Assembly: GCA_022703485.1 (NCBI GenBank)
Contig: JAKLDO010000004.1
Span: 1,636-65,635 of the forward strand
From: a bacterium
Lineage (GTDB): Bacteria > UBP6 > UBA1177
Direction of reading: 5' to 3'
Length of the DNA stretch: 64,000 bases
In this document: piece after piece, positions 12,390 to 55,957 of the stretch
Layout: every line of letters starts with the position of its first letter
Position numbering within the stretch: the first letter of the stretch is position 1
Translations under genes and position numbers: made by a program
Notes under the pieces: generated by a model
What the model saw: only the letters and a program-made list of their open reading frames with translations
Told to the model about the DNA's origin: nothing
The model's database searches: none

Positions 12390-12458
12390 TGGACCCTCCT
12401 GTCTGAGCAATATGTTAATGCAACTAATACACAATCACTAAATTTATTAGTGCAAGGA

Positions 12459-12487
12459 AGGATATTAACGGAGTGACGGTTTGTCAA
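12459..12487 (-). promoter_or_regulatory. candidate sigma70-type promoter for the giant coiled-coil gene
   Basis: On the minus strand: TTGACA, 17 nt, TATCCT, about 70 nt upstream of GTG 12389. Confidence 0.35.
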
Positions 12488-12534
12488 TTTTTTCTGTTAC
12501 TTTTTTAATGATCGCGTGGATTAAAAATACTAAG

Positions 12535-33150: not shown

Positions 33151-34852
33151 AACCGGTATATTCATTCATATTTCTAAGAACTGCCGGATCAGCAGCTTCA
33201 TTAGCAGAATAATCGTCCTCTATACCCATCGCTACAGGATATATGCCGGCCCAGCTCAGCATTACAGCCGCCTTGAGATCTTCCATGAGTATCGTATCAA
33301 TCGAATCCTGAGGAGTATGATAATATTCATGACCTCCGAGAGTCGAAAGCAGTACCGCAGGAACATTTCCGTAATAATAGAAACACACATGGTCTGAGGC
33401 GTCAAGGGGTTCGGCTGATGCTATTTCATAACCGAGCTCCTGTTCATAGGCATATCCTTTCATTACATCGGCAAGCCATGCATTTTCTGAAAGCGTGGCA
33501 CCGTACATGCTGAGCCCGAGACCGGTTCCTGCTCCGACCATATCTATACTGTAAGCCGCAACTGTGTCAGCCATAGGCATTGCCGGGTTCTGAACATGGT
33601 AACATGAACCTATCAATCCGAGCTCTTCGGCGTTCCATGCGGCAAAAAGAAGAGTACGCGCAGTCTTTTGTCCGCTCAGGGCAAAAGCTCTGGCAAGCTC
33701 CATGACAACAGCGGTGCCTGACGCATTGTCATCGGCACCGTAATAAACATCTCCCGTCACGGGGTCTTTGCCGAGGTGGTCGATGTGGGCTCCTATCACT
33801 ATCACTTCATTTTTGAGAACAGGGTCGTTCCCGGGAAGTATGCCTATAACATTGTCAGAGCTTACTTTCTTCATTTCTACATCCAGATTGATGGAAGCAC
33901 TGATGCCCGTTGCAGTACTGTGCGGAACAAGATCCGCATCTATGGACTGAGACCACGACTCAAGATCAGGGATCTTAGTCACAATACTGCTTCTTGATGC
34001 AAAGACAACCGGAACATCTTCAACAAAATATTCAGCTCCGAGAGTGTTCCCTCCCTCAGGGATATCCATACTGTCCTGGAAATGATTTACAAGAATGACA
34101 CCGGCCGCTCCGTGAATAGCCGCATTCTTTGACTTGTATCCGAAATTCCAAAGGCATGGCTCTCCTGCACACGCTTCATTTGCAGGGCATGATGTATGGA
34201 CAGACTCAAGGTCTCCAGGACCGTGACGAAGAATTACGACTATCTTATCCTTGACATCTATCCCTTCAAAATCATCGTATCCCGTTTCAGGAAGAGGACA
34301 ATCGGGATATGTATCCTTATCAAACGCAGGAACAGTTATGCCATGACCTGCAAATACGATCTCTGCATCGATCTCGCCGCCTCCTGAATACTGTAGGACC
34401 TGAAAAGTCTCGTCATATGCGAAAGCTGTCCCGTCAACACCGAAAGAAGGTGTTCCGTTGATCTCCCACTGATCAAAATCGAAAGCCTGCAGGAATTTTC
34501 CCTCATCGCCGGCAGGAGTTAGTCCCAGATCATCAAAAAGGTCTTTTACATACTCGATAGAATCAGTATTTCCCTGTGTACCGGGAGCTCTTCCTGTACG
34601 GTCTGCACTTGAAAGCCATGCGACATCATCAAAAACGCGCTGAATATTGAAACTGAACTCTTCATCCACATCAGCATCCGCATCTTCATTCTGATCAGCA
34701 TCCTGAACATTATCTTCATCTGTGTCAAAACCTGATTCATCAGCTGGATCATCCTGATATCCATCCGCATCATTCACCTTCTCCTTCGAACTTCCGCATC
34801 CTGAGAGCACAAAGAAAAAAAGAGCATTAATAAAAATAAAAAGCTTTTTCAT
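33125..34852 (-). CDS. M28-family aminopeptidase lipoprotein with PA domain and acidic linker
   Basis: MKKLFIFINALFFFVLSGC is a lipobox. About 50 aa of D/E-rich linker follow. M28 motifs: GAHIDHLG, GADDNASGTAVVMELAR and AEELGLIGS. The start is ATG 34852, 6 nt after GGGAG. Confidence 0.85.
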   Translation of the reverse strand: MKKLFIFINALFFFVLSGCGSSKEKVNDADGYQDDPADESGFDTDEDNVQDADQNEDADADVDEEFSFNIQRVFDDVAWLSSADRTGRAPGTQGNTDSIEYVKDLFDDLGLTPAGDEGKFLQAFDFDQWEINGTPSFGVDGTAFAYDETFQVLQYSGGGEIDAEIVFAGHGITVPAFDKDTYPDCPLPETGYDDFEGIDVKDKIVVILRHGPGDLESVHTSCPANEACAGEPCLWNFGYKSKNAAIHGAAGVILVNHFQDSMDIPEGGNTLGAEYFVEDVPVVFASRSSIVTKIPDLESWSQSIDADLVPHSTATGISASINLDVEMKKVSSDNVIGILPGNDPVLKNEVIVIGAHIDHLGKDPVTGDVYYGADDNASGTAVVMELARAFALSGQKTARTLLFAAWNAEELGLIGSCYHVQNPAMPMADTVAAYSIDMVGAGTGLGLSMYGATLSENAWLADVMKGYAYEQELGYEIASAEPLDASDHVCFYYYGNVPAVLLSTLGGHEYYHTPQDSIDTILMEDLKAAVMLSWAGIYPVAMGIEDDYSANEAADPAVLRNMNEYTGSIRREHNK

Positions 34853-34874
34853 GGTCATCTCCCGGAATTATATA

Positions 34875-37783: not shown

Positions 37784-37887
37784 ACATTCTCTTAAAAAAA
37801 TTTGTTGACCTGTTCTTACTTATAATTAGATTTATGGGGAGTAAAAAACTGTTTTTTAATAAATTCTTAAGTTCTCGGGAGGGAACA

Positions 37888-39360
37888 ATGAAAAAACTGG
37901 TGTCTTTGATTTCTTTTGCTCTGCTCATATTTGCAACGAGCTGCGCCTCTTCCCCTGAAAAACTTTTTCAGAAGGGAAACCTCTGGAAAGGATCAGACAA
38001 GGTGAAAGCGAGAGGATACTATGAACAGGCCTGCAAGGAAAATCACATAGAATCATGTCACAATGCCGGACTTCTGTGGCAGAACGGTGACGATATAAAC
38101 GATGACAATAAAAAAGCGAGAGAGTTCTTCCAGAAAGCCTGCGATTCCCAGTACAATGATTCATGCATAATTCTTGCAGACATGTGGGCAAACGGAAAAG
38201 GCGGCGTTTACAAAGACAGTATGTCTGCGTTCAATCTCTATCAGGTGCTCTGTGACAGAGGCGTGGGTAAAGGATGCCGCGGAATGGGTGAAATGTACTC
38301 AAAAGGTGCTGCATCAATTGACAAGGATATAAAAAAAGCCATCGAGCTTTTTGAAATGGCCTGTGATAAAGACGATCTCAAGACCTGTGCAGATCTGGGT
38401 CAGACATGGTCCAAAAAATTCGATGATCCTGAAGCTTATGCCAAAGTGGAAAAATTCTGGGGCAAAGCATGTGACGGCGGAATGCTTGAAGTATGTGAAA
38501 GATTTGCTGATATGATAGTTGCAAACAAAGGCGGAGAGGACAGGATCTCTCTTTCACGCAAATATTATGACAAGGCCTGTGACGGAAAAGTAAAAGAGAC
38601 ATGCTATAAATTTGCAAGAGCTATCGTTGAAAACACGACTGACGAAGATGCTTCCGCTGAAGAAGCTCAGCCCTACTACAGAAAGGCCTGTGAGCTCAAC
38701 CATGCAGAATCGTGCTACTACATCGGCGTCTACCTCAATGAAAAGTACGGAAGTGCCGCATCTCTTGAAGAATTGAAAGAACTTCACGGTTTCTACAGCA
38801 AATCATGCGGAAGCGGCTTTGACCCGGCATGCGGAACAGCACAGTCCCTTAAAACCTCAATAGATGAACAGGAAGCCGAGATAGCAAGACAGGAAGCCGA
38901 AAAGAAGAGACTTGAAGAAGAGGCCCGTAAAGAAGAGGAAAGGAAAAAAGCAGAAGAAGAGGAAAGACTTAGACTCGAAAGGGAAAAAGCTGAACAGGAA
39001 GCTAAACTTGAAGCTGAGAGAGCTAAAAAAGAACGGGAAGAGGCTGAGCAGGCCGCTAAAATGGAAGAGGAAAGACTGAGAAAAGAAAGAGCTGAAGCTG
39101 AAAGAGCGGCAAAAAACAAGAAGAAAGAGGATGTTGTTGAAGAAGAAGAGGAAGAAGAGGAAGAGGATTTCGGTGAAGAAGAGGAAGAAGAAGCTGCTCC
39201 TCCTAAAAAACAGCAGAAAAAGCAGGATGTAGAAGAAGAGGAAGAAGAGGAGGAGGAAGAAGATTTCGGTGAAGAAGAGGAAGAGGAAACTCCTGCTCCT
39301 AAGAAAGAAAACAAAAAGAAAAGCGCCGAGGATGAACTTGACGACCTTCTTGGAGATTGA
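37888..39360 (+). CDS. Hcp-type cysteine-rich Sel1-repeat lipoprotein with ER/K-rich helix and poly-Glu tail
   Basis: GGGAGGG RBS, then MKKLVSLISFALLIFATSC (lipobox). Eight Sel1-like repeats each carry a C-x7-C pair (e.g. ACKENHIESC, ACDSQYNDSC). About 90 aa of E/R/K helix follow, then a duplicated poly-E segment. Confidence 0.85.
   Translation: MKKLVSLISFALLIFATSCASSPEKLFQKGNLWKGSDKVKARGYYEQACKENHIESCHNAGLLWQNGDDINDDNKKAREFFQKACDSQYNDSCIILADMWANGKGGVYKDSMSAFNLYQVLCDRGVGKGCRGMGEMYSKGAASIDKDIKKAIELFEMACDKDDLKTCADLGQTWSKKFDDPEAYAKVEKFWGKACDGGMLEVCERFADMIVANKGGEDRISLSRKYYDKACDGKVKETCYKFARAIVENTTDEDASAEEAQPYYRKACELNHAESCYYIGVYLNEKYGSAASLEELKELHGFYSKSCGSGFDPACGTAQSLKTSIDEQEAEIARQEAEKKRLEEEARKEEERKKAEEEERLRLEREKAEQEAKLEAERAKKEREEAEQAAKMEEERLRKERAEAERAAKNKKKEDVVEEEEEEEEEDFGEEEEEEAAPPKKQQKKQDVEEEEEEEEEEDFGEEEEEETPAPKKENKKKSAEDELDDLLGD
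39130..39318 (+). repeat. in-frame tandem duplication (~96 + 93 nt) encoding DV-E9/10-DFG-E6-xPAPKK units
   Basis: Direct reading: DVVEEEEEEEEEDFGEEEEEEAAPPKKQQKKQ followed by DVEEEEEEEEEEDFGEEEEEETPAPKKENKKK. Confidence 0.85.
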
Positions 39361-40361: not shown

Positions 40362-41369
40362 ATGGTGAGATTTATCATTTTTTTCACTGTGTTCCTATTT
40401 GTTCTATCATGTTCAGAAGACAGCACAAAAACAGCTGTCGATAATGAAAATAGTGACCCCGATATTCAGTCTGTGCCTGATGAATATGACAGTGACATGA
40501 ACGACAGCCTTGCTGAAGAGGAATCTGACGAAACGGAAATGCCGGAAGGGAATGATGATATTTCCGATCCTGATATTCAATCCGGAGACAGCAGTGATGA
40601 AATTCCTGATGAAACGCCTGATATCGACGATGTGAGCAATGAGCCGTGCACTTATCTTTTCGGCCGTCCGAATGAAAAAACGGGGCTCACATGGGACCAG
40701 TGCAAAGATTTTTATAATTGTGAAGGGGTGAAATTCACAGCTCCTGTTTATACTGAAGCCGATCTTGCAGTGCTGAACTCAAAGATACATCTCAATCCGC
40801 TTCCTGTGCTTACTTCAGACCCTTATGAAACTCCTGAACTTTTTCCCGAGGAACCTGAGAAAGCATGCGGTCTGATATGGGATACTGTAAATCCGGATGC
40901 ATATACTCTCGAGACTTTTAACAGCATCGAAGCAGCCGAACTTGCAGGCGCAAGAGTGACCCATACCGGTCCATGCGGACACTGTTCATCTTTGCAGAGC
41001 CTCGGAGTCTACATTTATCAGGGGGACCTCGCAACTCCTGTGAAGCAGTGTACATACGACAGCATTCTGCTCGGAGACGATTATCTTATGGAATGTCTGC
41101 AGAAGCTCGGGTTCGACGAGAACTGTGCAAAGATATGGATGTATAACGGAAAGAACACTAAAAAAGTGTGCATGTCGACCTGCCTGCCCCTCCAGAACGC
41201 CGTATATCATAATCCCGACGGTTCTCTCAATGACTGCATCCAGTGTGACGAAGATAAAAGCGGGCCTGTATTTCAGGCGGTTTCCGGCAGAACACGCCGG
41301 AATTCCGGACTTCCCACAGCACTCTGCAGGCCTTGCAGCTGGATATCCCCGATAGGTCATCATTATTAA
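40362..41369 (+). CDS. lipoprotein with acidic linker and Cys-rich C-terminal domain, hypothetical
   Basis: Lipobox FVLSC. The ~80-aa D/E/P/S linker has a repeated SDPDIQS. The globular part has about 15 Cys, including three CxxC (PCGHC, DCIQC, LCRPC). Confidence 0.65.
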   Translation: MVRFIIFFTVFLFVLSCSEDSTKTAVDNENSDPDIQSVPDEYDSDMNDSLAEEESDETEMPEGNDDISDPDIQSGDSSDEIPDETPDIDDVSNEPCTYLFGRPNEKTGLTWDQCKDFYNCEGVKFTAPVYTEADLAVLNSKIHLNPLPVLTSDPYETPELFPEEPEKACGLIWDTVNPDAYTLETFNSIEAAELAGARVTHTGPCGHCSSLQSLGVYIYQGDLATPVKQCTYDSILLGDDYLMECLQKLGFDENCAKIWMYNGKNTKKVCMSTCLPLQNAVYHNPDGSLNDCIQCDEDKSGPVFQAVSGRTRRNSGLPTALCRPCSWISPIGHHY

Positions 41370-42522: not shown

Positions 42523-44142
42523 TCAATTTCCCGGTTTCCAGTCAAATCCCCATGGTTTCTTCGGCTTTTCGGGGTTAGGTGTGTAATCAGATAATGGACA
42601 TTTTGCGGGATAAAAGTCACAATAACATTCGAGGTCTCTTACAACAAGTTCCTCTTGGCTCTGGAAAACAATAATATTGTTGTAAATGAACCCATAATCT
42701 TTATTAAACTTTAAATCAAAAGGCTCATCAAAACAAACCGTTTTTTTATCACTGAACCGGTACATACAGTAATCGTGTATATCATTTGCAGTATCTGCCG
42801 GATTTACATATCTTCTTTTTATAAGAACATATTTGTCATTTACATCGTATGAACCGAGAGCAGTATCACCTTCGCCTTCATAAATAGTTGAATATTTTAT
42901 ATTCTGTCTGTCTGTGATATCAGCAACTACTATTTTACTTCTTTTCTCACCTGTTGTTTCCTGTGAAGAGTAAATAACCATGTTTTTGTCTTTAAGAAGA
43001 GGATATCTTCCATACTCACCATCTCTTGATACTTTAAAACATCCGGCATCGCCTTTTGAAAGATCACAGAATTGGATCTGAATATCATAATCAAAATACA
43101 CAACAAAACTGTCAATCATCGAAGGATATCCTGCTCTTCTCTGGCTACCGTACAGTGTATCTTTCTTATATGTCAGTTCTTTCCACTTGTCCCACTCACC
43201 GATCTTTGTATAAAGAAGTCTCATGTCTGAAGCATCGTCTGCAAAGTGAGCACTCATGAAAAGATATGTTTCGCTTGCTCTCACATCCACAAGTTCCTGC
43301 GGAGTTTCTGCAAATTTTAAAGCATATCCATATTTGTTTTGTTCCTTGTCATAATATAGAAGATGTCTGCTCTTCGGACCATAATATGGACTGTCAGCAT
43401 AATCTGAGTCTACACGGTAATCAAAAGTGGAAACAAAATAATATTTTTTGTTCTGCCACCCATCCATATATCCTCTTCCGATTCTTTCAACTTTTCGAGT
43501 ATTTATGTCGTAGGCATAAGCCCCACCTCCCTGCCAGGAGGTTGTACCATTATCAATGTAGTACCATAATTTTCCATCAATTTCGCTGAACTGAACCGTA
43601 TTTGCGATATCACTTGTATACCATAACCCGGCCGTAAGTAATGCGTCACACTGAAACTTTCCGGCTTCTGATGCTTTTTTTGAACCCAAGTCCTCTGTTC
43701 CATTTACCATTATTGATTCAAAAGAATAGTTTTCAGAACACTGATCATAAGGTGCAGGGGTACATTCAAAACACATATCAAGTCCGCATAATTTCGACCA
43801 AAGTGCTTTTACGTCTTCAGGATCGGATGATTTGACTGGCTTGTCACCATAATAATAATATGCAATGTTCTTGTCTGAGTCTGAGTATTCCTCCCAGTAA
43901 GGATTGCCGCTCATATCAGGAAGTTCAATATCCTGTTCCCACTCATCATCCGACTCCGTTAAAACTTCGTCGGACGGGTCGTCGGACAAGTCATCAATGT
44001 CGTTATCGGTTTTGACTGAATCAATATCTGCTTCCGTATCATTCACAGCAAGATTGTCACTGTCGTTTTTCGGATTGTTCCCGTTGCAGGAAGTACATGA
44101 CCAGAAAAGAAACAGAAGCAATATGATTAATATGTTACGCAT
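42523..44142 (-). CDS. lipoprotein with acidic linker, hypothetical (possible beta-propeller)
   Basis: ATG 44142 follows GGAGGA; the ORF-track TTG at 44154 lies inside the RBS. MRNILIILLLFLFWSC is a lipobox. A ~60-aa D/E-rich linker is followed by a W/Y-rich repetitive beta-type sequence. Confidence 0.65.
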   Translation of the reverse strand: MRNILIILLLFLFWSCTSCNGNNPKNDSDNLAVNDTEADIDSVKTDNDIDDLSDDPSDEVLTESDDEWEQDIELPDMSGNPYWEEYSDSDKNIAYYYYGDKPVKSSDPEDVKALWSKLCGLDMCFECTPAPYDQCSENYSFESIMVNGTEDLGSKKASEAGKFQCDALLTAGLWYTSDIANTVQFSEIDGKLWYYIDNGTTSWQGGGAYAYDINTRKVERIGRGYMDGWQNKKYYFVSTFDYRVDSDYADSPYYGPKSRHLLYYDKEQNKYGYALKFAETPQELVDVRASETYLFMSAHFADDASDMRLLYTKIGEWDKWKELTYKKDTLYGSQRRAGYPSMIDSFVVYFDYDIQIQFCDLSKGDAGCFKVSRDGEYGRYPLLKDKNMVIYSSQETTGEKRSKIVVADITDRQNIKYSTIYEGEGDTALGSYDVNDKYVLIKRRYVNPADTANDIHDYCMYRFSDKKTVCFDEPFDLKFNKDYGFIYNNIIVFQSQEELVVRDLECYCDFYPAKCPLSDYTPNPEKPKKPWGFDWKPGN

Positions 44143-44152
44143 AAATTCCTCC

Positions 44153-44276
44153 AACTCACCCGGTCTTCGTAAACTCAGCCCACCCTCTCTTCAACGAAAA
44201 GAGGGTTAAAAGCTCCCCTTCTTTCTTCAGAGAGAAGGGGTGCGCCTTGAGTTTACCGAAAGGCGGGGGATGAGTT
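44153..44276. other. 124-nt three-way-junction element (candidate structured RNA leader or REP/MITE-like DNA)
   Basis: The closing helix pairs 44153-44177 with 44248-44276 and includes a perfect 9-bp GTAAACTCA/TGAGTTTAC. Hairpin 1 is 44182-44206 (7 bp, ACCCTCT/AGAGGGT). Hairpin 2 is 44215-44240 (11 bp with one G-U, 4-nt loop). The element abuts the SD of the minus-strand gene. Confidence 0.35.
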
Positions 44277-46085: not shown

Positions 46086-46219
46086 AAATTATTTCTTCAT
46101 GAACCACTCAAAATATTTTTGGAGGTCTCCTTTAATCTGCTGTGCTGCCTTTGGAGAATGCAGAAACAGTGTTTAGAAAATTATTTAAAAACTGTGGGTG
46201 AATTTAAAAAAATGACAGT

Positions 46220-46531
46220 TTACTTCTTGGCTTTTTTGGGAGCAGCTTTCTTCGGAGCAGCTTTTTTAACTGCAACTTTTTTCGGAGCAGCTTTTTTTAC
46301 TGCAACTTTTTTCGGAGCAGCTTTCTTTGCAACAACTGCCTTTTTAGGAGCTGCTTTTTTTACTGCAACTTTCTTCGGAGCAGCTTTTTTTGCAACTGCT
46401 TTTTTAGGAGCCGCTTTTTTTACTGCAACTTTTTTCGGAGCAGCTTTCTTTGCTACTGCCTTCTTGGGAGCCGCTTTCTTAACTGCAACTTTCTTGGGTG
46501 CCGCTTTCTTTACTGTCATTTTCTTTTCCAT
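46220..46531 (-). CDS. histone H1-like Lys/Ala-rich repeat protein
   Basis: 103 aa: MEKKMTV followed by about nine 10-aa units KKAAPKK(V/A)(A/V)(V/A). GGAGAG RBS and a near-consensus promoter lie upstream. Confidence 0.8.
   Translation of the reverse strand: MEKKMTVKKAAPKKVAVKKAAPKKAVAKKAAPKKVAVKKAAPKKAVAKKAAPKKVAVKKAAPKKAVVAKKAAPKKVAVKKAAPKKVAVKKAAPKKAAPKKAKK
46223..46510 (-). repeat. 30-nt (with 60-nt super-period) coding tandem repeat
   Basis: The unit GGAGCAGCTTTTTTTACTGCAACTTTTTTC and variants are iterated about 9 times on the + strand. Confidence 0.9.
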
Positions 46532-46566
46532 TCAACTCTCCGTAAAATGTGAATAAAAGCAGATAT

Positions 46567-46677: not shown

Positions 46678-47763
46678 CTACTGTGCGGGCCTTACATTTA
46701 CGAGGAAGAGCTGATCGCTTGAAATAGATCCTGTGGTTATGGTTTCACCTGTCATCGGCGATTTAACTTTTCTTGTCATCGAGAGCATGCTGCCCATCTG
46801 TGCGATCATGCCTGTTCCGAAAACAAGGTTCGATGCGAACTCGGCAGGTATCGTGAACTCACCGTCATCAACAACAGTACAGCTTACGCTCACAGTTGTG
46901 TTCATGTCTTTCATTGCTGTGACCGTCATTTCAACGAACCCGTTCACAGGATCGTTCTGCGTCCATGTGAATGAAAGAGGCTGCGCCATGTCAATAACAA
47001 TGAACGGGAATCCGCTGCCGTCATCGGTCAGCGTGTGACTTGTCAACTCAAATTTCTTCTGCATGTGGAAGGTTGCAGAGAAAGGATCGAGATCGTCAGG
47101 AGTAGGATCTTCGGCATTGAGCGTGTAGTCCACATCATATGTGATAAGTGATGGATCGACACTGCCGTCACCTTCGCCGTTAAGCTTATACACCTGATCG
47201 TTCGGCTCATAAAGGAAAGTCTGCTCACCGGCCTCGAAACCTTTTATCTTTATCGGACCTACATCCAGAGATTCCCTTCCCGGAGTTGCACAATGCTCAG
47301 AATTTGCAACAGGGTTACCCTGATCATCATAATCAGGAACGCATTCCTGTTCAGGAGCGCAGTCTTCCTTTGAAGTGCATTCCGGTTCTCCCGGAGCCTC
47401 TTCACCGACAACACATGTATCAAGCATGTAGGTCGGACCTTCATAAGTCTCTTCAAGGTCCTCTCTTGCAGTTTTCATGACATAACCTACTATCATGGCC
47501 TGAGGAGAACCCATCATGTTTATATCAACGAAATTGAAGTTCACCGAATATCCGGGATCCTCAGGATCGAATTCATCGGAAACTTCTTCATCAATGTCAA
47601 CCGCTTCGTCAACCGTTTCATCAGATGTCTCGTCAGCCGCCTCGTCAGTCACTTCATCATCATTGACCGGTTCCACATCACCTTTCTGATTTGTACTGTT
47701 ATCGCAAGATACAGCAAAAAGAAGAAAAGATAGAACAATAAAAACGATCCCGTACTTTTTCAC
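46678..47763 (-). CDS. lipoprotein with acidic linker, hypothetical
   Basis: The likely start is GTG 47763 after GGAGGA, giving MKKYGIVFIVLSFLLFAVSC (lipobox). ATG 47775 and GTG 47790 are alternatives. The linker is VEPVNDDEVTDEAADETSDETVDEAVDIDEEVSDEFDPEDPG. Confidence 0.65.
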   Translation of the reverse strand: MKKYGIVFIVLSFLLFAVSCDNSTNQKGDVEPVNDDEVTDEAADETSDETVDEAVDIDEEVSDEFDPEDPGYSVNFNFVDINMMGSPQAMIVGYVMKTAREDLEETYEGPTYMLDTCVVGEEAPGEPECTSKEDCAPEQECVPDYDDQGNPVANSEHCATPGRESLDVGPIKIKGFEAGEQTFLYEPNDQVYKLNGEGDGSVDPSLITYDVDYTLNAEDPTPDDLDPFSATFHMQKKFELTSHTLTDDGSGFPFIVIDMAQPLSFTWTQNDPVNGFVEMTVTAMKDMNTTVSVSCTVVDDGEFTIPAEFASNLVFGTGMIAQMGSMLSMTRKVKSPMTGETITTGSISSDQLFLVNVRPAQ

Positions 47764-47917
47764 GATGTCCTCCATTATTTCACACGACACGGCTTAATAT
47801 ATCCTGATGTATTTTTATGTCAAATGGGATACGGTTCAATATTTGTCTTGAAAATATCCGGTAAATGTAGAAAATGATTAGGTTGTGTGATTTATATTAG
47901 AATCCTGAGAGGTAAAA

Positions 47918-49219
47918 ATGAAAAAGTTGATGTTTGTGACGCTGTTCTTTATTTTTGCAGTCATTCCTTTTATTAACCTGACTGCTGATGACATGTATCC
48001 TAACATTGCTGTTGTCAACACTGATACCGACGGGTTGATCGGTGCAATAGAAAAAGCGGCGGCACAGCAGTTCTATATGGGTCACCCTGACATCTATGAT
48101 TTCCTTTTCATCTATACTACATTCAATCCTTCGATGGATATGCAGCAGGGACTTGCCATCCAGTATACCGTGCAGGGAATAAACCGTGATGCCGGCATTA
48201 TGAGCCCTTATGGCACACCTTCAGACTGGGGAAGCGCAGGCAAACTTTTGGGCGCAGCAAGAATGTGCAATATTGATCAGTATCCTGACAATCCCGATGT
48301 TGCAATATCAACAAACATCCTTTCTCCTTATGCAGGAATGTCAAGTGCCGAACTTCTTGCGCACGAATGGAGTCACTACTGGCTTGCTGCAATGGATTTC
48401 AAAAAAGAAGGGATGCTGGAAAATCATCCGGGACTGAGAGGTTGTGAAGGCGGCAATGAAAACGGGTGTGATCCCAACCAGCATTGGAGCGGTGATTTCA
48501 GTGACGGCAACTCTGTAATGTATGGCGGAGATATAACCGATAACGGTGACGGATCTTTCACTTATTATTTCGGCAATCCGAAAAAATACGGACCGCTTGA
48601 CCAGTATGTTATGGGACTGCGTGCTCCTGAAGAAGTGGGCGATCTTTTCTTTCTATGCTCAAGTGCTGACATCGAACAGTGCAGAGAAGGAAATCCCGCT
48701 GTTCCGGCTCCGAAATCTTCAGCTCCCAGTACAAAGACAGGTGTTTACAAACATGTTGTGACTATGGATGACATTATCCGTGCAATGGGACCGAGAATTC
48801 CGTCATCTGCTGAATCACAGAAACATTTCAATGTCGCATTTATAATTGCAAATAAAAACGGATTCTATCCATTCCCTCAGCAGCTGCAGAAACTTGAAAC
48901 GCTCAGAGTCCGCATGCAGGAATGGTTTACATGGGCGACAGACGGCAGAGGAACAATATGCACAGAGCTTGACGGAGACTGTGAGAACAATACCGGCAAT
49001 GATGACGACATTATTCCTGATGTGGATGCCTTTGTTCCTGACAATAATATTACAACTGATGAAGAAATCACACCAGATGAATCAGTTACAGATAACAACA
49101 TAACCCCTGACGAAACTGATGAAGAGATAAAAGACGAAAACACAGAAACTCCAGATAACAGCATAGATCAGCCTGCTGATGAAGAAGAAGCCGGTTGCGG
49201 CTGTACATTAGTTTTCTAA
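47918..49219 (+). CDS. secreted putative zinc metallopeptidase (HExxH), paralog A, with acidic tail ending GCGCTLVF
   Basis: Signal peptide MKKLMFVTLFFIFAVIPFINLTA. Motif AELLAHEWSHYW. An ~80-aa D/E/T/P-rich tail leads to the terminal EEEAGCGCTLVF. Confidence 0.8.
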   Translation: MKKLMFVTLFFIFAVIPFINLTADDMYPNIAVVNTDTDGLIGAIEKAAAQQFYMGHPDIYDFLFIYTTFNPSMDMQQGLAIQYTVQGINRDAGIMSPYGTPSDWGSAGKLLGAARMCNIDQYPDNPDVAISTNILSPYAGMSSAELLAHEWSHYWLAAMDFKKEGMLENHPGLRGCEGGNENGCDPNQHWSGDFSDGNSVMYGGDITDNGDGSFTYYFGNPKKYGPLDQYVMGLRAPEEVGDLFFLCSSADIEQCREGNPAVPAPKSSAPSTKTGVYKHVVTMDDIIRAMGPRIPSSAESQKHFNVAFIIANKNGFYPFPQQLQKLETLRVRMQEWFTWATDGRGTICTELDGDCENNTGNDDDIIPDVDAFVPDNNITTDEEITPDESVTDNNITPDETDEEIKDENTETPDNSIDQPADEEEAGCGCTLVF

Positions 49220-49239
49220 ATATTTTTTACGAGGACGGA

Positions 49240-50538
49240 ATGAAAAGATCACTTTTTATCGTTATCATTTTTCTGTTTCCTTTATCAGCTGTCTATGCCG
49301 ATGACATGTATCCTAACATCGCACTTATCCAGACAGATGCTGACAACCAGATGATAATGGGTGTTACAGAGAAAGCAGCCGCCAATATTTTTTATCAGAC
49401 ACACCCTGATATTTATGACTTTCTGATATTCTACCACACATTCACTCCTCAGCTGAACATGCAGCAGGGACTTCTGATAACATACACCGTTAAAGGCATA
49501 GGAAGGGAGGGATACAACCCTACAGGCCCTGCATCTGCGTGGGGTAGCGGAGGCAGACTGATGGGCGGAGCAAGGATGTGTCATATCGATCAGTATCCAG
49601 ACGATCCTGATGATAACATGAAATTTCCCCTTGCCGGTCTTACAAGCACCGAGCTCCTTGCTCACGAAATGAGCCATTACTGGTTCGCCGCAATGGAATA
49701 TAAAAAAGAAGGTATGGAAAAAAATCATCCCGGTTTCAGAGGTTGTGAAGGTAACAGCGGCGAGAACGGAGCTTGCTCTCCCAATCAGCACTGGAGCTAC
49801 TATTTCAATTCAGGACCTTCTGTCATGTATGGAAGCGACATCACTGACAACGGTGACGGATCGTTCACTTTCACTCATTCCAGTCCGAGAAAATACAGCC
49901 CTTTCGATCAGTATGTGATGGGGTTCCGCGCTCCGGGTGAAGTCGGAGAACTTTTCTATCTTTGCGATTATGCGGACGAATCGATGTGCAAAGAAGGCAA
50001 TCCGGCTCTTCCGACTCCTCATACTGCGGCTCCCGATACTGTTTCAGGAAAGACAAAAATCGCTTTCACGATTGATGATGTGATCCGCGCAATGGGCGAA
50101 AGGGTCCCATCTTCTACTGATGCACCGAAACATTTCAATGTCGGTTTCATCATGGTCAGCAAACCGGGATTCGTTCCGTTCCCTCAGCAGCTTGAAAAAC
50201 TCGAAAAGATAAGAGTCCGTTTCCAGGAATGGTTTACATGGGCGACGGACGGTAGAGCCACGATATGCACAGAGCTTGACGGCGACTGTGAAAGCACAGA
50301 GACTCCTGATGACGACGACCCCGTGATAGATGATGACAGCATTGTTGTCGAAGATAACACCGTGATCCCTGATGAAGAAGTGACACCCGATGAATCAGTG
50401 ACGGATAACACCGTATCTCCCGATGAAACAGTTCAAGATGAAGAAGTTAAAGATGAAAATTCTGAAACTCCCGACAACAACACAGAACAGCCCGCTGATG
50501 AAGAAGAAGTCGGTTGCGGCTGTACGATAGTTTTCTAG
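49240..50538 (+). CDS. secreted putative zinc metallopeptidase (HExxH), paralog B, with acidic tail ending GCGCTIVF
   Basis: ATG 49240 follows GAGGA. Signal peptide MKRSLFIVIIFLFPLSAVYA. Motif TELLAHEMSHYW. By eye it is about two-thirds identical to paralog A. The terminus is EEEVGCGCTIVF. Confidence 0.8.
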   Translation: MKRSLFIVIIFLFPLSAVYADDMYPNIALIQTDADNQMIMGVTEKAAANIFYQTHPDIYDFLIFYHTFTPQLNMQQGLLITYTVKGIGREGYNPTGPASAWGSGGRLMGGARMCHIDQYPDDPDDNMKFPLAGLTSTELLAHEMSHYWFAAMEYKKEGMEKNHPGFRGCEGNSGENGACSPNQHWSYYFNSGPSVMYGSDITDNGDGSFTFTHSSPRKYSPFDQYVMGFRAPGEVGELFYLCDYADESMCKEGNPALPTPHTAAPDTVSGKTKIAFTIDDVIRAMGERVPSSTDAPKHFNVGFIMVSKPGFVPFPQQLEKLEKIRVRFQEWFTWATDGRATICTELDGDCESTETPDDDDPVIDDDSIVVEDNTVIPDEEVTPDESVTDNTVSPDETVQDEEVKDENSETPDNNTEQPADEEEVGCGCTIVF

Positions 50539-50545
50539 ATCTATT

Positions 50546-51463
50546 TTACTCTTCCAGTTCAGATATTGTGTCTTCGGAATCTGCAACGGCAGGTGTTTTC
50601 TTTTTGACGGTGACTGCGTTGTTGGTCTCGGTCGATTCAAGTTCGCTGAATGCGTCTCCGCCCATTCCTTTGCTTTTTACTGCGGGAGCGGCCGCTGCCT
50701 TCTGTTCACAACCTTTCTTGAAACCTGAGTCGCATGCGGCTTTGAAATGGACTTGTGCATCGTTCATGCTTTTATTTCCGCCGAGTCCTTTCTTGAACAT
50801 ATTGCCGGCATAGTAGCATGCTTTTGCATGTCCGTAATTGCAGGCATATGAGAAATGGCTTCTTGCAAAGATCTGGTTTTTCATACCTTCAACACCGTTA
50901 TACCACATCACGCCGAGCTTGAAACATGCAGTAGCATCTTTTTTAGTTTCACAGCTGTATTTAAGCTTCTCCCTTGCACTTTCCGCCACCGTTCCGCCGT
51001 TCTTAATAGCGTTGAGGAGCTTTTCAGCCACAACTTTAGCACCTGACGGAAGCGACTGGGCATCAGGAATTGTCTCGGTGGTGGCAAGATCTATCTTTGC
51101 CGTTTCAATGTCTATCATCCTTATCGTGATGATAAACTGGTTCCCGAGATTGCCGAAAGTGCCGGTTATAAGCTTTTTGATAGCAAGGAACTTTCCGAGC
51201 TCGACCGCCTGCTCAGGGTCGATTATTCCGCTCATCATAAGCCCGTGCTCATCAAGCACCTTTTTCAGCTGGTTCCTTTCGACAAGTTCGATCTTTTTAT
51301 CAGCCGAAAGCTCGGAAATGATTATTCCCGTAACCGTTGCCGCGTAATCTTTAAAATATGTACCGCCGTCAAGATCAAGCACTGCGACTTTCGTGCTTTG
51401 CGCAAAGATCATGAACGGAACAAACATCAGAAATAACACAGCAGCGAACAACACCTTTTTCAT
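50546..51463 (-). CDS. secreted protein: TolB-N/CsgG/LpoB-like beta-alpha module + three Hcp-type Sel1 repeats
   Basis: Signal peptide MKKVLFAAVLFLMFVPFMIFA. The module reads KVAVLDLDG...ELVERNQLKKVL...LITGTFGNLGNQFIITIRMIDIETAKI. C-x7-C pairs are SCETKKDATC, ACNYGHAKAC and ACDSGFKKGC. ATG 51475 is an alternative start. Confidence 0.65.
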   Translation of the reverse strand: MKKVLFAAVLFLMFVPFMIFAQSTKVAVLDLDGGTYFKDYAATVTGIIISELSADKKIELVERNQLKKVLDEHGLMMSGIIDPEQAVELGKFLAIKKLITGTFGNLGNQFIITIRMIDIETAKIDLATTETIPDAQSLPSGAKVVAEKLLNAIKNGGTVAESAREKLKYSCETKKDATACFKLGVMWYNGVEGMKNQIFARSHFSYACNYGHAKACYYAGNMFKKGLGGNKSMNDAQVHFKAACDSGFKKGCEQKAAAAPAVKSKGMGGDAFSELESTETNNAVTVKKKTPAVADSEDTISELEE

Positions 51464-51475
51464 ATCATCCTCCAT

Positions 51476-52711
51476 TTATTCCGAAAAAAACTCTTCGAGA
51501 TTTATCGTTGAAAAGAACTTTTTGACCACTTCAACGGAGACATTCCTCGTCTCCTCCCTGATCTTTGCGGCTTCGTTCTGCGGATTTACAAAAAAGGGCT
51601 TATGTTCATAATGAGTGATCTTGTACTTCACACCGTTCTTGAAAGTGTGAAGATCGACCTCAAGCTGGTATTTCCTGTAGTTGTCAACAGTTATTGTCGT
51701 TCCTTTGAGCGACACGACTATGGAATGGGTGAGATTTTCATCATTCGACGGAACTATTCCGAAATCAAGAAGCGCCTTCTCGATGTCATCAACGATACGG
51801 ACAGCGCTGTTGACCTTGAGATAAACTTCCTTTTTTCCCATCTTTTCGGGGATCAGAATAAGTTCGACAAACTTCTTATCACCTTTTGAAAGTGCGAAAG
51901 AGCCTTTGAGATTCTTGAAACCCTCAGCCTTGACTGTGAAAGTATAGCTTCCCGGTTTAAGGAATATCTTTTTATTGATCTGGTCCGCTTTCCCGTTTAT
52001 CTCGACAGCCCCTTTCGTTCCGGTCTTCGCGGAAAAATATATCGAACCGTGAGAAGCCATCATCTCGATCTCTTTTTTAACTGCGGTGAGAATATCAATG
52101 TATTTCTTCCTTTCAGGCACTGCCTGCTCTGAAACCGAGTAAAGAAGAGAGAATGCGAGATACACCGTTGTAAGAGTGCTGTCATATTTCACAGGATCGA
52201 GCATCTCCAGATCGTCAGGAAGAGTTGTAATGAGATATGTGATGGTGTTGATGACCGCTTTGGATGACATGAACGCGGTAACCTCGAAGCCTTCTTTGGC
52301 TTTTTTAGGCTGAGTATACTCCACACCTTTCAGAAACACAGAAGAGTTTACAACTATATCGTTCTTGAGCGATTCAGTGTATTTCCCGTCCTTTTCCTCC
52401 TGAGAAAGCGATGCGTTGCCCTTGATCTGAGCGACTATAGAACTGCTCAGCTGTGCAAGAGCGTCCATTTTGGCATTCTTTTCGTTGCTGCCGTAACCCG
52501 TCCCTTTAAGAACAGCCGTCTCGACATCCACATCAGAAAAAGCCGTTTTCGCTCCTGAGGCTGAAGGAGCCGGACTGGCCGGCCCCTTTCCGTCAAGCTC
52601 TGCAAAAGCATCAGCCGCGTCCTTTTTCGCCTTGCTGTAGTTCCCCTTCGCATGAAGACCGGCAGGAACCAAAGCAAGAATAAGAACCGCGAGCATTAAA
52701 TATCTTTTCAT
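51476..52711 (-). CDS. secreted protein with LPP20-like segment and PEGA-like domain, hypothetical
   Basis: AGGAG, 5 nt, then ATG 52711. Signal peptide MKRYLMLAVLILALVPAGLHA. LKGTGYGSNEKNAKMDALAQLSSSIVAQI is LPP20-like by eye. GSYTFTVKAEGFKNLKG is PEGA-like. Confidence 0.6.
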   Translation of the reverse strand: MKRYLMLAVLILALVPAGLHAKGNYSKAKKDAADAFAELDGKGPASPAPSASGAKTAFSDVDVETAVLKGTGYGSNEKNAKMDALAQLSSSIVAQIKGNASLSQEEKDGKYTESLKNDIVVNSSVFLKGVEYTQPKKAKEGFEVTAFMSSKAVINTITYLITTLPDDLEMLDPVKYDSTLTTVYLAFSLLYSVSEQAVPERKKYIDILTAVKKEIEMMASHGSIYFSAKTGTKGAVEINGKADQINKKIFLKPGSYTFTVKAEGFKNLKGSFALSKGDKKFVELILIPEKMGKKEVYLKVNSAVRIVDDIEKALLDFGIVPSNDENLTHSIVVSLKGTTITVDNYRKYQLEVDLHTFKNGVKYKITHYEHKPFFVNPQNEAAKIREETRNVSVEVVKKFFSTINLEEFFSE

Positions 52712-52718
52712 GACACTC

Positions 52719-53933
52719 CTATTCAATTGTCAGTTCAATATTCCCCGAACTTGCAGCCTTGAAAACAAGGAATGAACCTGTATCGCTCACTTTTTCAAGT
52801 TTGCCGGGGCCGCTGTATGTCCCTTTAAGGCTCTGGAAAAGTTCAAATGCGTTAGGAACATCCTTGATATAAACGATATAGCTGAATGTTGATTTTCCGC
52901 CTGCAAGTCTCTTTATCGGCCTCTGTGACATCTTCTTGAGCGCTCCGTAAACAGCTTCATCTACACCTGCGCCGTCAGTTGAATTTGAAAGAACCGTAAC
53001 TTTGAAGGGCTTGCCTTTCTTTGCCATTTCCATCCATTCTTTCTTGATCTGTGAAAGTATCTTTGCTGAAGCATCGTTAGTGGCTTCCTGAACAAGAGCG
53101 TTGGGGTCTGTCACTTTTCTTTCAGCACTGTAGCCCGTAGTTGAACCGAGCATCTTGCCTGAAGCGGTCTCATAGACTTCTACAACGACAGAAGCCTTTG
53201 CCGTTCCCATGCTTCCTGCACCGCCGGAATAGTTGATCTTTGCATAGATGTCACTTCCCAGAGAAAGGGCCATGTCGTGCATAGGATCTGTCTCAGCACC
53301 TTCAAGAGTCGAGATCTTGCTTACAAGATTGTTGACCTTGTCACCCTGCTCAGCTTTGTAAACTTCAAAAGAATTGTCGGTGAAATACTCCTGAATTACA
53401 GCAACTGCTGTTTTTGCATAATCGCCGCCTTTATCAGCAAAAACTGAAATCGTCGGCATTCCGATCTGCTCGCCTATCTCATCTTCGGAAGCGATTATTT
53501 CATTTGAAACAAGCTCTTCCTTTATCATTGCGACATCAACTTTAAAAAGGTATGTAAGCTTTGTCTTGTCGCCCTGTTTAGCCTTTCCTTTTACTTCAGA
53601 CTGATATCTGATGTATTTTGCTGTATTTGCATACATCTGCTGGGCAAGGCCTACAGCCTTTGTCTTTTCAGCAGGAGATTTAAGTATCGGCTTGTCTCCG
53701 CCTTCAAGCACGAACCATATCGCGGTCTTTTTGGCTTCCGCTGTAGCCTCTTCCATTGTACATCCTATACCGGTAGCTTTTATCATCATCTCACCGGTCC
53801 CCGAACTTTCGACAAAACTAGCTTCATAACTTGCAGGTGCCGGCTGAGTGTTCGCATTACAAACCGGAGCCGATCCGCAACTTGAAAAAAGCATTGCAAC
53901 CGCAACTGTCAGACTAACCACGATCCTTTTCAT
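52719..53933 (-). CDS. lipoprotein, hypothetical (LPP20-like N-terminal segment)
   Basis: GGAGGG RBS. MKRIVVSLTVAVAMLFSSC is a lipobox. IKATGIGCTMEEATAEAKKTAIWFVL is LPP20-like by eye. Confidence 0.6.
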   Translation of the reverse strand: MKRIVVSLTVAVAMLFSSCGSAPVCNANTQPAPASYEASFVESSGTGEMMIKATGIGCTMEEATAEAKKTAIWFVLEGGDKPILKSPAEKTKAVGLAQQMYANTAKYIRYQSEVKGKAKQGDKTKLTYLFKVDVAMIKEELVSNEIIASEDEIGEQIGMPTISVFADKGGDYAKTAVAVIQEYFTDNSFEVYKAEQGDKVNNLVSKISTLEGAETDPMHDMALSLGSDIYAKINYSGGAGSMGTAKASVVVEVYETASGKMLGSTTGYSAERKVTDPNALVQEATNDASAKILSQIKKEWMEMAKKGKPFKVTVLSNSTDGAGVDEAVYGALKKMSQRPIKRLAGGKSTFSYIVYIKDVPNAFELFQSLKGTYSGPGKLEKVSDTGSFLVFKAASSGNIELTIE

Positions 53934-53975
53934 TTTTTACCCTCCAAATAATTAATTACCCTGTTCCCCTAAATA

Positions 53976-55805
53976 TTATTTCTTACTTTTTGCAGCACAT
54001 ACATTCGAAGGTTTGGAATACATTTTTGCCGTCGATCCCACTACCGGCAGATGGAAATTGAAATCGAGCGATGCCGTCAGACCCATTGCAAGAAGGTCTG
54101 AATCAAGCTCATTTTCATTCGGGTCCTCCACCTTTACGACAAAACCGAGATTCCATCCCCCTTTCAGAACTATGTCCAGTGACGGATTGACACTGAACCC
54201 GAAATGAAGCTGAGGATTGACGATGAACTGCTGAAGTTTGTAATCGTTAAATGTTGAACCGCCCTCATAAGCGAGATTGAGCGCCGGAGCAAAGTAGAAA
54301 CCTCCTGCACCCGCATACAGTCTTTTTGATATACCCAGACCGCCTCCGAACCATATCGGACGGCCCGCATCAACAGAATCATCAATACCGACACTCATCT
54401 GGAAAAAGATATCAAAATAGAACTCGCTCAAAGCCGAAGAATTTGCAGAATATCCGAGATCGATACTGCCCCCGAGATGGAATCCCGGTGCAAGGAACAT
54501 TCCGCCGACATCAGCGACAGGTGTGTTCACCCCGAGAGAATTGTCCTTGATCCCTGTTACAAGCGAGGAATTCATACCGAAACCGAGATTGAAGAAAAGT
54601 CCTGTCCAAGGATACTCGCGGAGCTGGTCCGCCTCTTCGACCGAACCGTTGGTCTTTTTCATTATTGTAGGCACATTGTAGTCGGCAGAACAGTTCTCGC
54701 TCACCTTTCTCGCTCTGACATATCCAGTCTTTTTCATTTTTCCGTCAACCATCTGCATGATCGTGAAAGGAGCATCGACCCTGATATCCTCCATCACACC
54801 GAAATCTGTCTCCACCTTGTTTCCGTTAACAGCTTTAACTGTCATGAAAAGAGCGAAGTTGTCATCTTTCTTAAGCTGATAGTTGGCATTGATCGAAGCC
54901 GCTTTAACTGCCGTCTGGAAAGTATCGTTGAAAGCCGCCATGACCTGATTCGGCGTAGGTATCACATAAAATGAATTCGTTGAACCGGAAACCATTCCCG
55001 ACACTGCAACGAGCTTATTGTAAAGATTGAACTTTTTCGCTTCCGGGTCATATTTATAGATCAGGAAAGTGACATTTACCGGGATGTCGAATTCAATGTC
55101 ATAAAAATACACCGTTCTTCCGTCAAAGGTCTTTCTTTCCTTTCTGATTACCTTTCCTGCACCTTTTATATACTGGACATGAGCGGCAAAAACATACGAT
55201 GAATTGACAAGCGTCTTTATGAACTCTATGGAAACGCCCAGCTCTTTAGCTTTTGTGACCATGAATGTTTCCTGCTCGGTCTCCGGAAGCTCTTTGTACC
55301 TTTGTTCTATCGTAGCTTCAAGCAGGGTTCCTATACTTTCTTTAACCCCTGTGTTCAAATAATTTTCGAGCCTGTCCTTAAACCCGTCAAGGCTGTCCGT
55401 ACCTGAAGAGAAATAAGGAATGTATTCACCTGTCTCAACGGTGGACTTTCCATTCCTTGTTATCATTTCGGCTTTTCCGTTCTGCATTATTATCTTGTCG
55501 AAACGGTTTGTTATCGTCCATTCATAGAAAGTTTTCGCAGCTTCCATCTTTTCGCTGTACTCGAGCGGATAATTCACAGTGAAGCTCCACGGAGAACAGC
55601 GGTATCCGTTCTGGGAGCTTTCGCAGTACTGCATCGGGATATTGATCGAGTTCTGCATGAATCCTATATCAGCAAGACCCATTACAGCTTTTCTTTCGTA
55701 TTTCTTCTGAGTTCCGTCAGACTTCAATTGCGAATCGTCCGATACTGCTGACAGCATAAATACAGTGCTGATCTGAACAACGAATAGAACTAACAATTTT
55801 TTCAT
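53976..55805 (-). CDS. secreted protein with C-terminal beta-barrel-like region, hypothetical
   Basis: A signal peptide is present. The last ~230 aa are Gly/aromatic-rich with alternating hydrophobicity (GLFFNLGFGMNSS..., GGFYFAPALNLAYEGG..., GWNLGFVVKV). There is no canonical terminal Phe. Confidence 0.6.
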   Translation of the reverse strand: MKKLLVLFVVQISTVFMLSAVSDDSQLKSDGTQKKYERKAVMGLADIGFMQNSINIPMQYCESSQNGYRCSPWSFTVNYPLEYSEKMEAAKTFYEWTITNRFDKIIMQNGKAEMITRNGKSTVETGEYIPYFSSGTDSLDGFKDRLENYLNTGVKESIGTLLEATIEQRYKELPETEQETFMVTKAKELGVSIEFIKTLVNSSYVFAAHVQYIKGAGKVIRKERKTFDGRTVYFYDIEFDIPVNVTFLIYKYDPEAKKFNLYNKLVAVSGMVSGSTNSFYVIPTPNQVMAAFNDTFQTAVKAASINANYQLKKDDNFALFMTVKAVNGNKVETDFGVMEDIRVDAPFTIMQMVDGKMKKTGYVRARKVSENCSADYNVPTIMKKTNGSVEEADQLREYPWTGLFFNLGFGMNSSLVTGIKDNSLGVNTPVADVGGMFLAPGFHLGGSIDLGYSANSSALSEFYFDIFFQMSVGIDDSVDAGRPIWFGGGLGISKRLYAGAGGFYFAPALNLAYEGGSTFNDYKLQQFIVNPQLHFGFSVNPSLDIVLKGGWNLGFVVKVEDPNENELDSDLLAMGLTASLDFNFHLPVVGSTAKMYSKPSNVCAAKSKK

Positions 55806-55906
55806 AACCCATCCCCCCGGTGAATCGAAAAAAATAAAACAAGAAATTCCTTGTGTCTATAATAGTATTTAAGCTGAAAAAGGCAATATTTAGAGCGTAT
55901 CAGAAA

Positions 55907-55934
55907 TAAAAAAAAGGACCGCACGAAGCGGTCC
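55907..55934 (-). terminator. rho-independent terminator after rplQ
   Basis: On the minus strand: GGACCGC-TTCGT-GCGGTCC followed by T8, starting 23 nt after the rplQ stop. Confidence 0.85.
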
Positions 55935-55957
55935 TTAAAACATTAAAAAAGACTTTG

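Follow-up and report, generated by a model that had tools for sequence, protein, structure and literature searches.

In a 64,000-nucleotide stretch of contig JAKLDO010000004.1 (hereafter the window), which derives from a bacterium of the uncultured phylum UBP6, four co-directional genes on the minus strand, termed g1 to g4, were analyzed. The products of g1, g2 and g3, joined by that of g4 in some genomes, are tentatively interpreted as a non-enzymatic structural complex that would hang from the inner face of the outer membrane as a ring or lattice scaffold, a reading to which we assign somewhat less than an even chance. It builds on the export signals, folds and domain composition of the proteins, on the tightly coupled and conserved adjacency of the genes and on the absence of enzymatic and inner-membrane components, from which we infer that the proteins associate physically, that they form an oligomeric ring or lattice and that they have a structural or tethering role. 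A preliminary description of the same DNA had proposed a trans-envelope assembly; since no inner-membrane component was found, the evidence favors an outer-membrane-anchored periplasmic complex instead.

The conservation of the cluster was determined with g2 as bait in species-representative genomes, which yielded 25 loci whose neighboring genes were assigned by tblastn and hidden Markov model (HMM) searches. The order g1-g2-g3 is kept in essentially all UBP6-like loci, with the three genes side by side wherever the locus is completely sequenced, and the adjacency of the three genes was seen in approximately 20 independent genomes over phylum-level distances. The window itself matches a contig of a JGI digester metagenome. 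The nearest named relatives are metagenome-assembled genomes (MAGs) of UBP6, together with MAGs labelled 'bacterium', Spirochaetales or Sumerlaeota. In Desulfurobacterium (Aquificota) and in further distant genomes the triad is present in rearranged order, and several junctions overlap by 4 nt, which suggests co-translation. In D. atlanticum (locus L002), whose g1 is about 31% identical to that of the window, the cluster comprises genes for an MltC-like SLT protein, a small LPP20 lipoprotein and a 360-aa lipoprotein, followed by g3 (PEGA), g1, a FecR-like gene and g2, and the cluster of L006 is similar; the MltC-like lytic transglycosylase is the first gene in both of these Aquificota-type genomes. 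Locus L005 carries g2, g3 and g1, while L032 carries the small LPP20 lipoprotein, a g1-like gene, g2 and an LPP20-bearing protein. The order in L033 is a 416-aa protein, a 393-aa protein, the small LPP20 lipoprotein, g3, g1 and g2. There, the g3-g1-g2 cluster (12087-17685 of that locus) abuts a convergent capsule-export set on the opposite strand, made up of Wzi, a 933-aa Wza (Poly_export-SLBB) and Wzz; this is the sole hint of a link to polysaccharide.

The small LPP20 lipoprotein is homologous across four distant lineages and forms part of their clusters, and none of the accessory proteins that accompany the triad in Aquificota has a homologue at any other place in the window. Orthologues of g4 are limited to the closest relatives (L007-L011 and L024). 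Of the four-gene unit described previously, it is thus the g1-g2-g3 triad that is conserved. Neither a conserved enzyme nor an ATPase, an inner-membrane protein or a candidate substrate was found in the neighborhoods inspected, in agreement with the earlier view that the cluster has no enzymatic component, and HMM searches assigned none of the genes to a characterized pathway. Profile-profile comparisons revealed no convincing paralogy between g1 and g2, g1 and g3 or g2 and g3, nor between the small LPP20 lipoprotein and g2 or g3, and the possibility that the components are duplicates of one protein was dropped.

The first gene, g1 (53976-55805, minus strand), encodes an exported protein of 609 aa. 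An AlphaFold2 (AF2) model built from a 59-sequence alignment reached a predicted local distance difference test score (pLDDT) of 85.6 and a predicted template modelling (TM) score of 0.84. According to the AF2 secondary structure, a periplasmic region (approximately aa 32-398; 54612-55712, minus strand) consists of an alpha/beta module, a conserved helical segment, a beta-sandwich, a long helix and a small beta domain. The helical segment is highly conserved (RYxELPExEQETFxxxKAKELG), and R169, Y170, L173, E177, F181, A186 and G190 are invariant in the family. The periplasmic region is followed by a C-terminal 8-stranded outer-membrane beta-barrel (approximately aa 400-586; 54048-54608, minus strand), whose eight long strands lie within residues 403-585, mostly with a pLDDT of 75-96, and by a short conserved tail containing Cys603. 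The C-terminal barrel suspected in the preliminary description is borne out by this model and by the Foldseek matches of the barrel to NspA (1p4t, TMt 0.68), Ail (3qra, 0.56) and OmpA (9fzc, 0.58); in addition, a handful of family members match OMP_b-brl, OMP_b-brl_2 or PagL in sequence HMM searches. In fold and size the C-terminal region of g1 thus resembles NspA, the OmpA N-domain, Ail and PagL. However, the order of the parts is the reverse of that in OmpA, as in g1 a periplasmic region of some 370 residues precedes the barrel, which is succeeded by the Cys603 tail. A channel function was rejected because the barrel has only eight strands, and in the model it is an NspA/OmpA-sized anchor and not a channel.

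The top fold match of g1 in the Protein Data Bank (PDB) is FlgT of the Vibrio H-ring (3w1e; Foldseek E 4.7e-7, probability 1.0, 392 columns), and the LPHT-ring chain 8z5n_0 is matched as well. Since the global TM-scores of the FlgT matches of g1 and g2 are low (0.19-0.29), the likeness of g1 to FlgT is one of domain type and architecture and not of global superposition. No Pfam or NCBIfam family corresponds to g1, to its 59 relatives or to distant relatives. The FlgT Pfam families (FlgT_N/M/C) gave no match at E ≤ 1 for g1 or g2 and none at E ≤ 0.1 in the 59 g1 relatives, and a PDB sequence search with the g1 and g2 profiles returned nothing meaningful. In total, 111 homologues of g1 were found. 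The family is rare, with 373 cluster representatives among 1.84 billion proteins, and because nearly all of them measure 550-650 aa, the fused arrangement of a periplasmic region and a barrel is its constant form. Four cysteines are near-invariant in the family, namely C61, C70, C372 and C603; the third is part of the periplasmic region and the fourth belongs to the tail past the last barrel strand, and disulfide formation could lock the tail back onto the periplasmic domain. In L035 (10823-13063), where a g1 homologue has neither g2 nor g3 beside it, the gene after it encodes a 746-aa protein that combines an Lcl_C domain with collagen triple-helix repeats.

The second gene, g2 (52719-53933, minus strand), encodes a protein of 404 aa that had been described as a lipoprotein, which is supported by a lipobox whose Cys19 is invariant among the relatives. 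It consists of an N-terminal alpha/beta domain (aa 38-143), a DUF6175 domain (aa 146-314) and a C-terminal domain (aa 308-394) of beta-alpha-beta-beta-alpha-beta-beta topology. The match to Pfam DUF6175 (PF19672) covers residues 146-314 with 41.7 bits against a gathering cutoff of 23 (E 1e-10), and the precomputed PF19672 annotation is present on all 79 g2 homologues; the D. atlanticum orthologue is 47% identical. When the AF2 model of g2 (pLDDT 83.7) was compared with the PDB using Foldseek, FlgT (3w1e) was again the top match (E 1.2e-7, 309 columns), followed by CsgG (1e-5), CT253, HpaA, GNA1162, PelC (TMt ~0.6), LptE, LpoB and XCC0632. These matches place DUF6175 in the alpha/beta fold class of outer-membrane-docked lipoproteins, many of which form rings. 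An LPP20-like segment had previously been proposed for both g2 and g3. For g2 it is not supported by the profile comparisons, which yielded only a 23-column motif match to g3 (56% probability) and no match to the small LPP20 lipoprotein, whereas for g3 it holds weakly. A search of the literature on DUF6175, FlgT-like proteins and sets of LPP20, PEGA and CsgG returned nothing relevant, with neither DUF6175 nor the cluster being mentioned. In two distant lineages, a protein with an FGE-sulfatase domain is encoded directly upstream of the DUF6175 gene (L036, 8250-8909; L038, 7777-8652), and it is possibly a further recurring partner of DUF6175. The FGE-sulfatase domain also occurs in PorK and GldK, the ring lipoproteins of the type IX secretion system.

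The third gene, g3 (51476-52711 from ATG, 411 aa; 51476-52726 from TTG, 416 aa; minus strand), encodes an exported protein with an LPP20-like module (approximately aa 64-140), a helical linker, a PEGA-type beta-sandwich (approximately aa 222-290) and a C-terminal alpha/beta domain. The family profile matches the 'LPP20 lipofamily protein' of PDB entry 4kzs marginally (E 0.0044, residues 68-141). The LPP20 Pfam model (PF02169, cutoff 25.9 bits) is matched weakly by five of the 30 g3 relatives but not by the window copy, while the positional equivalent of g3 in L032 scores 32.6 bits. A comparable arrangement is known from Helicobacter pylori, where LPP20-module proteins are likewise encoded together (HP1454/Lpp20/HP1457); the Helicobacter operon differs in that it has no barrel protein, DUF6175 or PEGA, and the likeness of the g3 family profile to 4kzs is no more than marginal. 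The PEGA domain (PF08308) noted in the preliminary description is supported for the family, 20 of whose 30 members match (best E 2.5e-5), and for the D. atlanticum orthologue (26% identity to g3, E 7e-26), which exceeds the Pfam cutoff of 20.8 with 27.3 bits. The window copy itself remains below this gathering cutoff (14 bits, E 0.049). The consensus of the g3 relatives contains a lipobox (…VSC), whereas the signal peptide of the window copy lacks the cysteine (…LVPAGLHAKGN). The latter has apparently changed from a lipoprotein into a periplasmic protein that is soluble or processed by signal peptidase I. The g1 and g3 families are new to curation, as no curated model exists for either.

The product of g4 (50546-51463 from the second ATG, 305 aa; 50546-51475, 309 aa; minus strand) combines, as described earlier, an alpha/beta module of the CsgG/FlgO/LpoB type (aa 28-160 in the 309-aa numbering) with three cysteine-rich Sel1 repeats (aa 167-257), to which a low-complexity tail is appended. 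It exceeds the gathering cutoff of Pfam CsgG (PF03783) with 26.7 versus 20.8 bits (E 4.2e-6), although only positions 33-97 of the 210 in the profile are covered, and it shows a weak, sub-threshold match to FlgO and a weak match to LpoB. Residues 167-257 match Helicobacter HcpC (PDB 1ouv, E 3.6e-17), and the three C-x7-C pairs identify the repeats as Hcp-type, while the Pfam Sel1 model alone scores below its cutoff (20.4 versus 30.7 bits). CsgG is a lipoprotein in which two transmembrane hairpins build a 36-stranded nonameric pore. No lipobox was found in g4, whose signal peptide MKKVLFAAVLFLMFVPFMIFAQS lacks a cysteine, and the CsgG-type module, with about 130 residues ahead of the Sel1 start at residue 167, would leave no room for such hairpins. 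The idea that g4 forms a CsgG pore was rejected on the grounds of the partial profile coverage and the missing lipobox. Judged by its sequence and distribution, g4 is a putative lineage-specific accessory. Its type of module is nevertheless tied to the system by L036, in which the gene downstream of a distant DUF6175 gene encodes a 582-aa protein that fuses g3-like and g4-like parts, namely an LPP20-like N-terminus, a beta-sandwich and a CsgG/FlgO-type C-terminal domain (CsgG 2.1e-9, FlgO 5.9e-4, 26% identical to the g4 module). At 37834-39360 (plus strand) the window encodes a second Hcp-like Sel1 protein, a lipoprotein of 508 aa with a long tail rich in Glu and Lys; its numerous Sel1 repeats (Pfam Sel1 3e-17) are bracketed by cysteines and similar to the C-terminal half of g4.

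In the proposed scaffold, g1 would be the integral anchor, with its barrel in the outer membrane and the FlgT-like periplasmic domains below. The lipid-tethered g2 would supply the PelC/CsgG/LpoB-type module, of a kind that elsewhere assembles into rings beneath the outer membrane, and g3, being lipidated in most relatives, would contribute the LPP20 (FlgP-type) module and the PEGA beta-sandwich. The three proteins may then hetero-oligomerize to a ring- or lattice-like periplasmic scaffold that stiffens the outer membrane or couples it to the periplasm and the cell wall. In close relatives g4 could be an add-on adaptor that docks by its CsgG/FlgO-type module and holds a partner, either a protein or a muropeptide, with its Hcp-like Sel1 repeats. 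The occasional MltC-like transglycosylase is as expected, because a bulky assembly in or near the peptidoglycan would need room.

Several points weigh against this interpretation. The linkage of the triad is not obligatory, since four loci of Aquificales MAGs (L028-L031) have g2 and g3 without an adjacent g1, and two others (L003 and L035) have g1 without g2 and g3. The FlgT fold matches are low in TM-score, and no sequence-level homology to characterized proteins was detected when the g1 and g2 profiles were compared with the PDB and the g1 relatives with Pfam. Moreover, the fold class is common to proteins of secretion (CsgG, PelC), lipopolysaccharide insertion (LptE), activation of penicillin-binding proteins (PBPs; LpoB) and flagellar rings (FlgT, FlgO), so that the fold alone does not fix the function.

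In its fold composition the cluster comes closest to the Vibrio H-ring, a structural analogue that the preliminary description had not named, and in its operon logic to lipoprotein systems of the CsgG and PelC types. It shares with the H-ring a FlgT-like fold (g1 and g2), the LPP20/FlgP module (in the small lipoprotein and, putatively, in g3) and the FlgO/CsgG module (g4), and both are non-enzymatic, outer-membrane-associated and equipped with lipid anchors. It differs in that its proteins lack sequence-level homology to FlgT, that g1 adds an integral 8-stranded barrel, that the proteins are much larger and multi-domain with PEGA and Sel1 modules, and that no flagellar gene is linked to the cluster in the contexts examined. 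A bolder form of the scaffold interpretation, which we regard as rather improbable, is that the triad and its LPP20 and CsgG/FlgO-type accessories constitute an independent machine, ring- or disc-shaped and not part of a flagellum, that lies beneath the outer membrane and is composed of the three fold types of the Vibrio H-ring. This machine could be either an ancestral-type scaffold that was recruited into flagellar outer discs or an unrecognized outer-membrane tethering or stiffening system of UBP6 and Aquificota.

The same fold types might also indicate that the proteins are flagellar accessories, which would form an outer-membrane disc or an H-ring-like collar around the basal body, like Vibrio FlgT/FlgP/FlgO or the FlgP basal disc of Campylobacter. 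FlgT is the top PDB fold match of both g1 and g2, LPP20, the FlgP family, recurs in the cluster, the g4-type domain matches FlgO besides CsgG, and Desulfurobacterium species are described as motile. In Vibrio, the FlgT, FlgP and FlgO fold types jointly build the membrane-bound H-ring, forming concentric rings under the outer membrane (10.64898/2025.12.02.691832). However, no flagellar Pfam family was detected among the annotated neighbors in the contexts inspected, none of the members scanned matched FlgT_N/M/C, and the FlgO match of g4 is sub-threshold only. Furthermore, FlgT has no membrane barrel of the kind present in g1, and the genes ahead of the cluster in UBP6-like genomes are those of the ribosomal operon and not motility genes. 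Papers mentioning UBP6 contained nothing on motility or the envelope. Taken together, a flagellar role appears unlikely.

A similarly unlikely explanation is that the cluster encodes an outer-membrane-anchored scaffold or regulator of peptidoglycan-remodelling enzymes, in which synthases or lytic enzymes would be brought in through the Sel1 and LpoB-type modules, in the way that LpoB activates PBP1b and NlpI scaffolds hydrolases. It would account for the MltC-like SLT transglycosylase that leads the two Aquificota-type clusters, for LpoB being among the fold matches of g2 and for the weak LpoB matches of g4 and of a distant g1 relative, as well as for the Hcp-type Sel1 repeats of g4, given that HcpB is reported to bind a muramyl ligand. 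The UBP6-like clusters, however, lack the transglycosylase, as do L005, L032 and L033, neither a PBP nor an amidase shows linkage to the cluster, and the likenesses to LpoB are weak and reflect a shared generic fold.

We consider it distinctly unlikely that the proteins are the outer-membrane part of an exopolymer or surface-protein export system, comparable to the PelC ring under PelB or to curli CsgG/CsgE/CsgF. PelC and CsgG are strong fold matches of g2, which superposes on PelC with its DUF6175 domain, and in either case the lipoprotein has an outer-membrane barrel as its partner (PelB in the Pel module). But the sole barrel of the cluster is 8-stranded and thus too narrow for a polymer, in contrast to a porin-sized conduit, g2 has two extra domains, and Pel biosynthetic genes are missing. 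The parallel to curli and to the CsgG/DUF799/DUF4810 clusters drawn in the preliminary description holds for the operon logic, as all are small operons of exported non-enzymatic proteins. It also holds for the CsgG-type module, which is present in g4 by Pfam (above the cutoff) and in g2 by fold, GNA1162 (there called DUF799) being one of the fold matches of g2. It does not extend to amyloid subunits, which are absent, or to sequence matches with DUF799 and DUF4810, of which there were none, and g4 covers the CsgG profile in part, with neither a lipobox nor space for the transmembrane hairpins. Although Wzi, Wza and Wzz adjoin the cluster in one genome, conservation does not extend to any glycosyltransferase, amyloid subunit or other substrate gene, nor are the putative secreted HExxH proteins encoded next to the cluster in the window conserved neighbors. 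Finally, a chance adjacency of four functionally unrelated envelope proteins, with which the loss of g4 beyond close relatives and the lack of paralogy between the components would agree, is hardly credible in view of a g1-g2-g3 linkage that outlives reordering over phylum-level distances with overlapping stop and start codons and of the fusion that joins g3-like and g4-like modules.

The layout of the locus in the window agrees with the preliminary description, as inspection of the open reading frames (ORFs) and ribosome-binding sites (RBSs) gave four co-directional genes separated by 42 nt (g1-g2), 7 nt (g2-g3, with ATG 52711) and 0 or 12 nt (g3-g4), each with its own RBS. These sites are GGGGGGAT upstream of ATG 55805 for g1, GGAGGG upstream of 53933 for g2, AGGAG upstream of ATG 52711 for g3 and GGAGGA upstream of ATG 51463 for g4; because of the position of the latter two, the 411-aa form of g3 and the 305-aa form of g4 are the likely readings. 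The N-termini of all four proteins read as signal peptides, in accordance with the export of all products claimed before. As also described, the cluster runs head-on into a convergent gene that ends at 50538, leaving 7 nt between its stop codon and that of g4, which ends at 50546, and it begins downstream of the rplQ terminator. This strong intrinsic terminator (55914-55936, minus strand; stem AAGGACCGC/GCGGTCCTT of 9 bp with 6 GC pairs, followed by the T-run TTTTTTTATTT) divides the cluster from the upstream ribosomal-protein operon. A candidate sigma-70-like promoter (TTGCCT-16-TATTAT, 55859-55886, minus strand) matches the consensus at 9 of 12 positions; it is a consensus match only and weak evidence, as such sites do not exceed the shuffled expectation in this region. 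The rplQ gene lies upstream of the cluster in three UBP6-like lineages (L001, L007 and L022), and this position, together with a promoter region separate from that operon, would suit a constitutively expressed housekeeping component of the envelope.

Beyond the cluster, the window contains several further genes for exported proteins. Two tandem paralogous secreted proteins (47918-49219 and 49195-50538, plus strand) share 272 identical residues, an HExxH motif (ELLAHEWSHYW and ELLAHEMSHYW), an acidic Thr/Asp/Glu-rich linker and an identical unusual C-terminus, GCGCT[LI]VF. They match no Pfam family and gave no credible NCBIfam match, and could represent a new family of metalloproteases in which the C-terminus serves as a signal of the sorting or lipidation type. 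Secretion of the neighboring proteases had been named among the deletion phenotypes to look for, yet the paralogues are found only on the window's own contig and are absent beside the cluster in all relatives, including the closest, L007. Since they are not conserved neighbors, a functional link was rejected and one to their secretion is without support. A 103-aa protein (46220-46531, minus strand) consists almost entirely of KKAAPKKVAV-type repeats, encoded by a DNA tandem repeat at 46230-46514 with a period of 30/60 nt, and resembles the Lys/Ala/Pro-rich DNA-binding proteins of the histone H1/HC2 type. On the plus strand, the longer ORF at 46119-46556 (FFGAAF repeats) is probably spurious. 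Predicted lipoproteins or secreted proteins with long Asp/Glu-rich linkers directly after the lipobox are encoded at 33125-34858 (minus), 40362-41369 (plus), 42523-44154 (minus) and 46678-47790 (minus strand). Together with the HExxH paralogues, they suggest that the region is enriched in surface or secreted proteins of unknown function.

Rings and discs close to the outer membrane, such as the flagellar H-ring, the basal disc, PelC, CsgG and the secretins, are central to envelope machines. A conserved set of modules of this sort that is free of enzymes and substrates and apparently non-flagellar would therefore point to an unrecognized structural element of the diderm envelope, carried by the uncultured phylum UBP6 and the deep-branching Aquificota. 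DUF6175 gains a structural and contextual annotation, and two families without a Pfam or NCBIfam model are defined, namely the fusion of FlgT-like domains with a barrel (g1) and the LPP20-PEGA proteins (g3). As Desulfurobacterium is cultured, the prediction is open to experiment. The system would be of greater interest if it were shown to be a non-flagellar relative of the flagellar discs or a new outer-membrane tether, and it could show where the proteins of the flagellar outer disc originated.

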